A stretch of DNA of 64,000 nucleotides from Escherichia coli (GTDB lineage: Bacteria; Pseudomonadota; Gammaproteobacteria; Enterobacterales; Enterobacteriaceae): assembly GCF_036507355.1 (NCBI RefSeq), contig NZ_AP027877.1; one strand, written 5' to 3'. The notes beneath the pieces were generated by a model. It saw only the letters and a program-made list of their open reading frames with translations, searched no databases and was not told where the DNA came from. The translations under genes and the position numbers were made by a program. This document shows positions 20,380-20,472 of the stretch, piece by piece (position 1 is the first letter of the stretch; each line of letters begins with the position of its first letter).

Positions 20380-20472
20380 TTAACTTTTCAATCGCGGGTC
20401 CAGCCATACCAACACAAGGGTGGAGAGCGAACACATCAACAAAATGCCGACGAACCAAAGTAAATACCACAT
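20380..20472 (-). CDS. appX: Small membrane protein AppX (YccB), 30 aa, cytochrome bd-II accessory
   Basis: Reverse translation MWYLLWFVGILLMCSLSTLVLVWLDPRLKS between appB and appA; not in ORF track (too short). Confidence 0.85.
   Translation of the reverse strand: MWYLLWFVGILLMCSLSTLVLVWLDPRLKS

Follow-up and report, generated by a model that had tools for sequence, protein, structure and literature searches.

The 64,000-nucleotide stretch of Escherichia coli DNA analyzed here (the window) corresponds to the torA...gfc-etp-etk-appAXBC-hya...ompA-pqi-uup-rlmL-elf region of an E. coli-type chromosome. Over the whole window, even the closest of 5,426 complete E. coli genomes reaches only ~99.2–99.4% identity, which, taken with the two IS1 copies described below, might point to a Shigella or to an E. 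coli lineage that is sparsely sampled. In its app region, the minus strand carries the following genes and translation signal:

21633..23177, minus strand: appC, cytochrome bd-II subunit 1, intact (NF011609, 1195.7 bits against a cut-off of 1025; residues 3–516 match profile positions 1–514 of 514)
20485..21621, minus strand: appB, cytochrome bd-II subunit 2, intact (NCBIfam NF011602, 832.8 bits against a cut-off of 681; profile positions 1–378 of 378)
20481..20487, minus strand: Shine-Dalgarno sequence UAAGGAG of appX, read from the sequence; its first three bases are the appB stop codon (20487..20485)
20380..20472, minus strand: coding sequence of appX (= cbdX = yccB), 30 codons plus TAA with an ATG start, recognized by translation, family models and identity to PDB chains
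19002..20300, minus strand: appA, periplasmic acid phosphatase/phytase, the next gene downstream (NF007552, 846 bits, match from residue 9 of the 442-aa ORF)

Pfam agrees with the assignments of appB, appC and appA. Both appB and appC score above the bd-II equivalog cut-offs and below the cut-offs of the bd-I models. The mechanical ORFs of two genes overshoot the annotated starts. For appC, the ORF runs past the annotated ATG at 23177 to a GTG at 23183, and for appA past the annotated start at 20300 (MKAIL..., a signal peptide) to an ATG at 20330. The annotated lengths, 1545 nt for appC and 1299 nt for appA, agree with the annotated starts. The short frame lies on the same strand as the bd-II genes appC and appB and directly downstream of them, not of cydA/cydB. 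The cytochrome bd-II operon is complete in this genome: appC, appB and appX are all intact.

Translation of the minus strand from 20472 to 20380 gives MWYLLWFVGILLMCSLSTLVLVWLDPRLKS, followed by TAA. This is the intact 30-codon, ATG-to-TAA frame claimed by the first-pass annotation, which had named a stop or frameshift within the 30 codons as evidence against it. Neither was found in 20380–20472 on this strand. The appB ORF ends at 20485, and exactly 12 nt (GGAGCAGGAACA, 20484..20473) separate its TAA from the ATG of appX, the distance given at first reading. The position between appB and appA, also proposed then, agrees with both the RefSeq and the MG1655 annotation.

The gene was missing from the ORF track supplied with the sequence. 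The default cut-off of the ORF tool is 60 aa, and a product of 30 aa falls under it, which would explain the omission. When the threshold is set to 20 aa, the mechanical list does show appX (20380..20472, minus, 30 aa, ATG). The absence of appX from the listing is therefore a matter of the length threshold, and not of a gene unfamiliar to annotators.

Identity of the 30-codon gene

The peptide was compared with the curated models of the AppX/CydX family. Against NCBIfam NF011333, the CbdX equivalog, it scores 80.8 bits (cut-off 57), with residues 1–30 aligned to profile positions 1–30 of 30. Against Pfam PF08173 (YbgT_YccB), it reaches 45.4 bits, compared with a gathering threshold of 26.2, and residues 1–25 cover profile positions 1–25 of 27. 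In contrast, the CydX equivalog model TIGR02106 gives only 18.9 bits, below its cut-off of 31.6. Since the score is 80.8 bits on NF011333 and 18.9 bits on the CydX model, the peptide is the bd-II paralogue and not CydX. The comparison with known structures points the same way. The peptide is 100% identical, over 30/30 residues, to the AppX chains 7OSE_C and 7OY2_X in the PDB, so that the family comparison suggested by the first-pass annotation comes out in its favor.

Residues Y3, W6 and G9 are conserved in the CydX family, as is an acidic residue following the helix (PMC6005532). All are found in the AppX peptide, with D25 as the acidic residue past the helix (M-W-Y3-L-L-W6-F-V-G9 ... W-L-D25). 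The peptide has a GRAVY value of 1.31, and its best 19-residue Kyte-Doolittle window, residues 4–22, reaches 2.49. This single hydrophobic stretch, which is a helix in 7OSE, bears out the earlier description of a single-TM peptide.

Existing annotation leads to the same gene. A cbdX feature with accession WP_000270305.1, mapped from the best-matching E. coli genome, falls exactly on 20380..20472, and the same accession is found in every sampled strain that has appX, K-12 included. The curated MG1655 record lists appX as b4592, "cytochrome bd-II accessory subunit AppX"; the name in current RefSeq is cbdX. K-12 AppX/CbdX/YccB (b4592, YP_001165313.1, WP_000270305.1; 7OSE chain C, 7OY2 chain X) is the same protein, identical at 30/30 residues. 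The K-12 app locus has the same order, appC-appB-appX-appA, the same 12-nt gap after appB and the same Shine-Dalgarno sequence. The K-12 gene differs from that of the window by two synonymous changes, in codons 27 and 28 (CGA/TTG here vs CGT/CTG), and the 12-nt leader differs by one base. We conclude, with a probability of about 0.97, that 20380..20472 on the minus strand is appX, the third gene of appC-appB-appX-appA, encoding the small subunit of cytochrome bd-II. AppX is already known and structurally solved, and the copy in this window adds nothing new in that respect.

Several other small subunits of cytochrome bd resemble AppX to differing degrees. CydX (YbgT) of bd-I (6RKO chain X) shares the Pfam family PF08173, the N-terminal MWY..W..G motif, the single helix and the place after subunit II, and its structure superposes on that of AppX (PMC8585947). 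However, CydX is a paralogue that is 37 aa long, compared with 30 aa for AppX, and in a PDB search it aligns to the window peptide over residues 1–24 only (E = 0.009). The Leu residues of the AppX–AppX contact are partly replaced in CydX (PMC8585947). CydS of the Geobacillus thermodenitrificans cytochrome bd is likewise a small single-helix subunit on subunit I, with an equivalent proposed role (PMC8951039), but it is tilted relative to CydX/AppX (review PMC8951039). No sequence match between CydS and the AppX peptide was found in this analysis. The fourth subunit of E. coli bd-I, CydY/CydH (YnhF), is also small and single-helix (PMC8951039). Unlike that of AppX, its gene lies apart from both the cyd and the app operon, and the protein occupies a different CydA cleft and has no counterpart in purified bd-II (PMC8585947, PMC8951039).

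The appX–appA spacer and other elements of the window

A further feature lies between appX and appA:

20339..20370, minus strand: REP-like 14-bp stem-loop in the 79-nt appX–appA spacer, starting 9 nt past the appX stop, seen by RNA folding and recurrence in genomes

An 82-nt fragment containing the spacer folds with -27.1 kcal/mol (z = -4.99), and 0/200 shuffled sequences fold as well. In short-query BLAST searches, E. coli genomes had a median of 3 places matching the 39-nt element, with a maximum of 9. The plus-strand core of the element, GCCTGATGCGACGCT, resembles the REP consensus. On the basis of the hairpin fold, the recurrence in genomes and this resemblance, the stem-loop is most likely a REP element, although the curated MG1655 record lists no REP annotation for this stretch. 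By analogy with other REPs, the spacer element might stabilize the 3′ end of appCBX or lower read-through into appA.

The 79-nt spacer varies at several sites among E. coli strains. In the 5′ arm of the RNA stem, two C-to-T differences distinguish the window from the closest strains (CUGAUGUGGCGU here vs CUGAUGCGGCGC). These changes turn two G–C pairs into G–U pairs, and the stem is thus kept. A known structured RNA was rejected for the spacer, as an Rfam search gave zero matches at E up to 1. A consensus scan of positions 20100–20700 found no sigma-70-like promoter. An intrinsic terminator between appX and appA was also rejected: the two weak terminator-like matches (plus 20279–20300 and minus 20626–20613) both lie inside coding sequence, and neither exceeds the shuffle expectation by more than ~2 standard deviations.

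A second REP-like core, ACCGGATGCGGCGT, is found at 18899–18912, with one mismatch to the loose search consensus. It falls between the convergent genes etk (ending at 18882) and appA (ending at 19002).

At the elf end of the window, there are two complete 768-bp IS1 copies, at 61270–62037 and 63111–63878. They have the same orientation and recognizable terminal inverted repeats, and they are ~91% identical. The first copy (61270–62037) breaks an elfC-type fimbrial usher gene, in whose ORF (59112..61283) the match to the usher profile begins only at position 98, and the two copies flank a fimbrial chaperone gene (62321..63022). Because IS1 interrupts the usher gene, this genome probably has no active elf fimbrial operon.

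Conservation of appX and competing frames

A 4.4-kb segment around appX, beneath which appC, appB, cbdX and appA are annotated, is matched over at least 80% of its length in 5,416/5,426 complete E. coli genomes, and at least 80% of a 181-nt appX segment is carried by 5,415 of the 5,426. Strains diverge by up to 5% in the DNA of these 181 nt. Within E. coli, the appX ORF itself shows two nucleotide differences only, CGA/CGT at Arg27 and TTG/CTG at Leu28, both synonymous.

To look beyond the species, the back-translated N-terminus of AppX was searched against a collection of species-representative genomes. This gave 14 loci in five genera: Escherichia (albertii, whittamii and others), Citrobacter, Salmonella enterica subsp. 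arizonae, Edwardsiella and Candidatus Schmidhempelia. The appX frame has 29–34 codons in 13 of these loci; the 14th runs out inside the frame. A GGAG/GAGG core precedes the start in 14/14 loci, and in all 14 appX starts 12–27 nt past an appB homologue, with an appC homologue before appB wherever the locus extends that far. The search pattern fixes AppX residues 1–9 and thereby biases the set toward conserved N-termini, so that selection was measured on codons 10–28 only. For these codons, pN/pS is 0.06–0.19 in 12/13 comparisons; the remaining value, 0.53 for Schmidhempelia, comes from a very distant, saturated comparison. Binomial tests of the synonymous excess in codons 10–28 give P values from 1e-5 to 0.05. 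Although the pairwise comparisons have ancestry in common and contain few substitutions each, they all point in one direction. Judged from these codon patterns, the appX frame is under strong purifying selection across genera.

The gene that follows appX is less constant. An appA gene comes after appX in Escherichia loci only, and no appA homologue lies within several kb downstream in the Edwardsiella, Salmonella arizonae and Citrobacter loci that have such flanks. The appX–appA linkage is therefore genus-specific, and the appB–appX linkage is general.

A natural knock-out of appX was observed in the swine isolate E. coli EL361 (NZ_CP193497.1; positions 1245–2458 of the extracted locus). In this strain an IS3-family element interrupts appX at about codon 18, and no cbdX annotation exists at the disrupted locus. 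Since a natural strain has an IS3 element inside the gene, appX is not essential under all conditions. The insertion probably cuts appA off from the appCB promoter as well.

Two other reading frames overlap the appX gene:

20470..20330, minus strand: +2-frame GTG ORF, 46 aa (VVFTLVRRHF...SGNQ), starting two bases into the AUGUG of the appX start, its TAA overlapping 20330
20337..20609, plus strand: spurious antisense ORF, 90 aa, TTG start, spanning the REP hairpin, appX and the 3′ end of appB

The first of these frames would be an addition to AppX. A minority of ribosomes might start at the internal GUG at 20470 and produce the 46-aa +2-frame peptide, reading on through the REP-like palindrome. 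The gene opens with AUGUG, the 46-aa GTG ORF begins two bases in, and the +2 frame is without a stop across appX in the Escherichia loci. A study of AUGUG/GUGUG starts in E. coli (PMC9841429) shows that initiation at such sites can take place in two frames. However, the same study lists appX itself, with the Shine-Dalgarno sequence UAAGGAG at an aligned spacing of 15, and predicts no ambiguity for it. Moreover, the +2 frame has a stop in most Citrobacter loci and in the Salmonella, Edwardsiella and Schmidhempelia loci, the second half of the peptide is a translation of the REP palindrome, and the peptide has no Pfam family match. With no family and no conservation outside Escherichia, the 46-aa ORF (20330..20470) was rejected as a candidate gene, and dual initiation is kept solely as a very unlikely alternative. 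If it did take place, the +2 start would give a second, Escherichia-specific product of the 93-nt appX gene.

The plus-strand ORF 20337..20609 would reverse the assignment, making the minus-strand frame a mirror image of the real gene. This ORF is the longer of the two, appears at the default ORF threshold and is open in all six E. coli sequences compared. We attribute its openness to its position, since over half of its length lies antisense to conserved appB and appX coding sequence. Its TTG start lies inside the REP-like palindrome, and 8 of its 90 amino-acid positions vary among the six E. coli sequences, and the underlying changes that were checked are synonymous in appX/appB. Stops lie well inside the plus-strand frame in 12 of 13 other genomes; the exception, E. 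albertii, has one stop only, three codons from the end. The best match in a Pfam search has E = 0.37, and no family could be assigned. Given the missing family match, the non-synonymous drift and the stops in relatives, the plus-strand ORF was rejected as a gene, and the chance that it is the real one appears to be negligible. The first-pass annotation was thus right to call it spurious.

Equally little remains of the idea that the 30-codon frame is a chance, untranslated ORF in the appB–appA spacer: very short ORFs are common, with 192 ATG ORFs of 25–40 aa in the six frames of the whole window, but appX alone among these reaches a Kyte-Doolittle value of 2.49 over 19 residues, its scores beat the curated family cut-offs, its position, length and Shine-Dalgarno sequence are kept in five genera with pN/pS of ~0.1, and its translation is identical to the subunit seen in two solved structures and by mass spectrometry of the purified enzyme.

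Role of AppX in cytochrome bd-II

The identification of the minus-strand frame as appX allows the published work on the K-12 protein to be considered for this locus. The cryo-EM structure of E. coli bd-II at 3.0 Å shows AppX as one helix buried within the membrane (PMC8585947). In the solved structures, this helix packs on transmembrane helices 1, 5 and 6 of AppC and stabilizes the four-helix bundle in which the bd-II quinol oxidase binds haems b595 and d (PMC8585947; review PMC8951039). The subunit was also found by mass spectrometry in the purified bd-II enzyme, with the identical K-12 sequence (PMC8585947). In that preparation, AppX is the main leucine-zipper-like contact joining two bd-II hetero-trimers, through residues Met1, Leu4, Leu5, Val8, Leu11, Leu12, Ser15, Leu16 and Leu19 (PMC8585947). 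All nine contact residues are found in the window peptide.

For the strain studied here, we propose the following sequence of events. The appX frame is probably read off the same mRNA directly after appB, with ribosomes recruited by the UAAGGAG Shine-Dalgarno sequence of appX itself, which overlaps the stop codon of appB. Both co-transcription and translation are inferred for this strain, and co-translation with appB is suggested by the 12-nt gap and by this overlap. The product would be a 30-residue single transmembrane helix lying against AppC and stabilizing the haem b595/d region. This structural role is carried over from the published structures and genetics of the identical K-12 protein.

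The locus also illustrates how easily such genes escape notice. At an ORF threshold of 60 aa, a real 30-codon gene with a structurally characterized product does not show up, and the longer antisense frame that covers it does. The genes of AppX, CydX and similar small membrane subunits are textbook examples of what length filters lose, and such filters favor their antisense shadows. For the organism, the complete operon is relevant in that bd-II is thought to help E. coli grow when the gut is inflamed or low in oxygen (PMC8585947).
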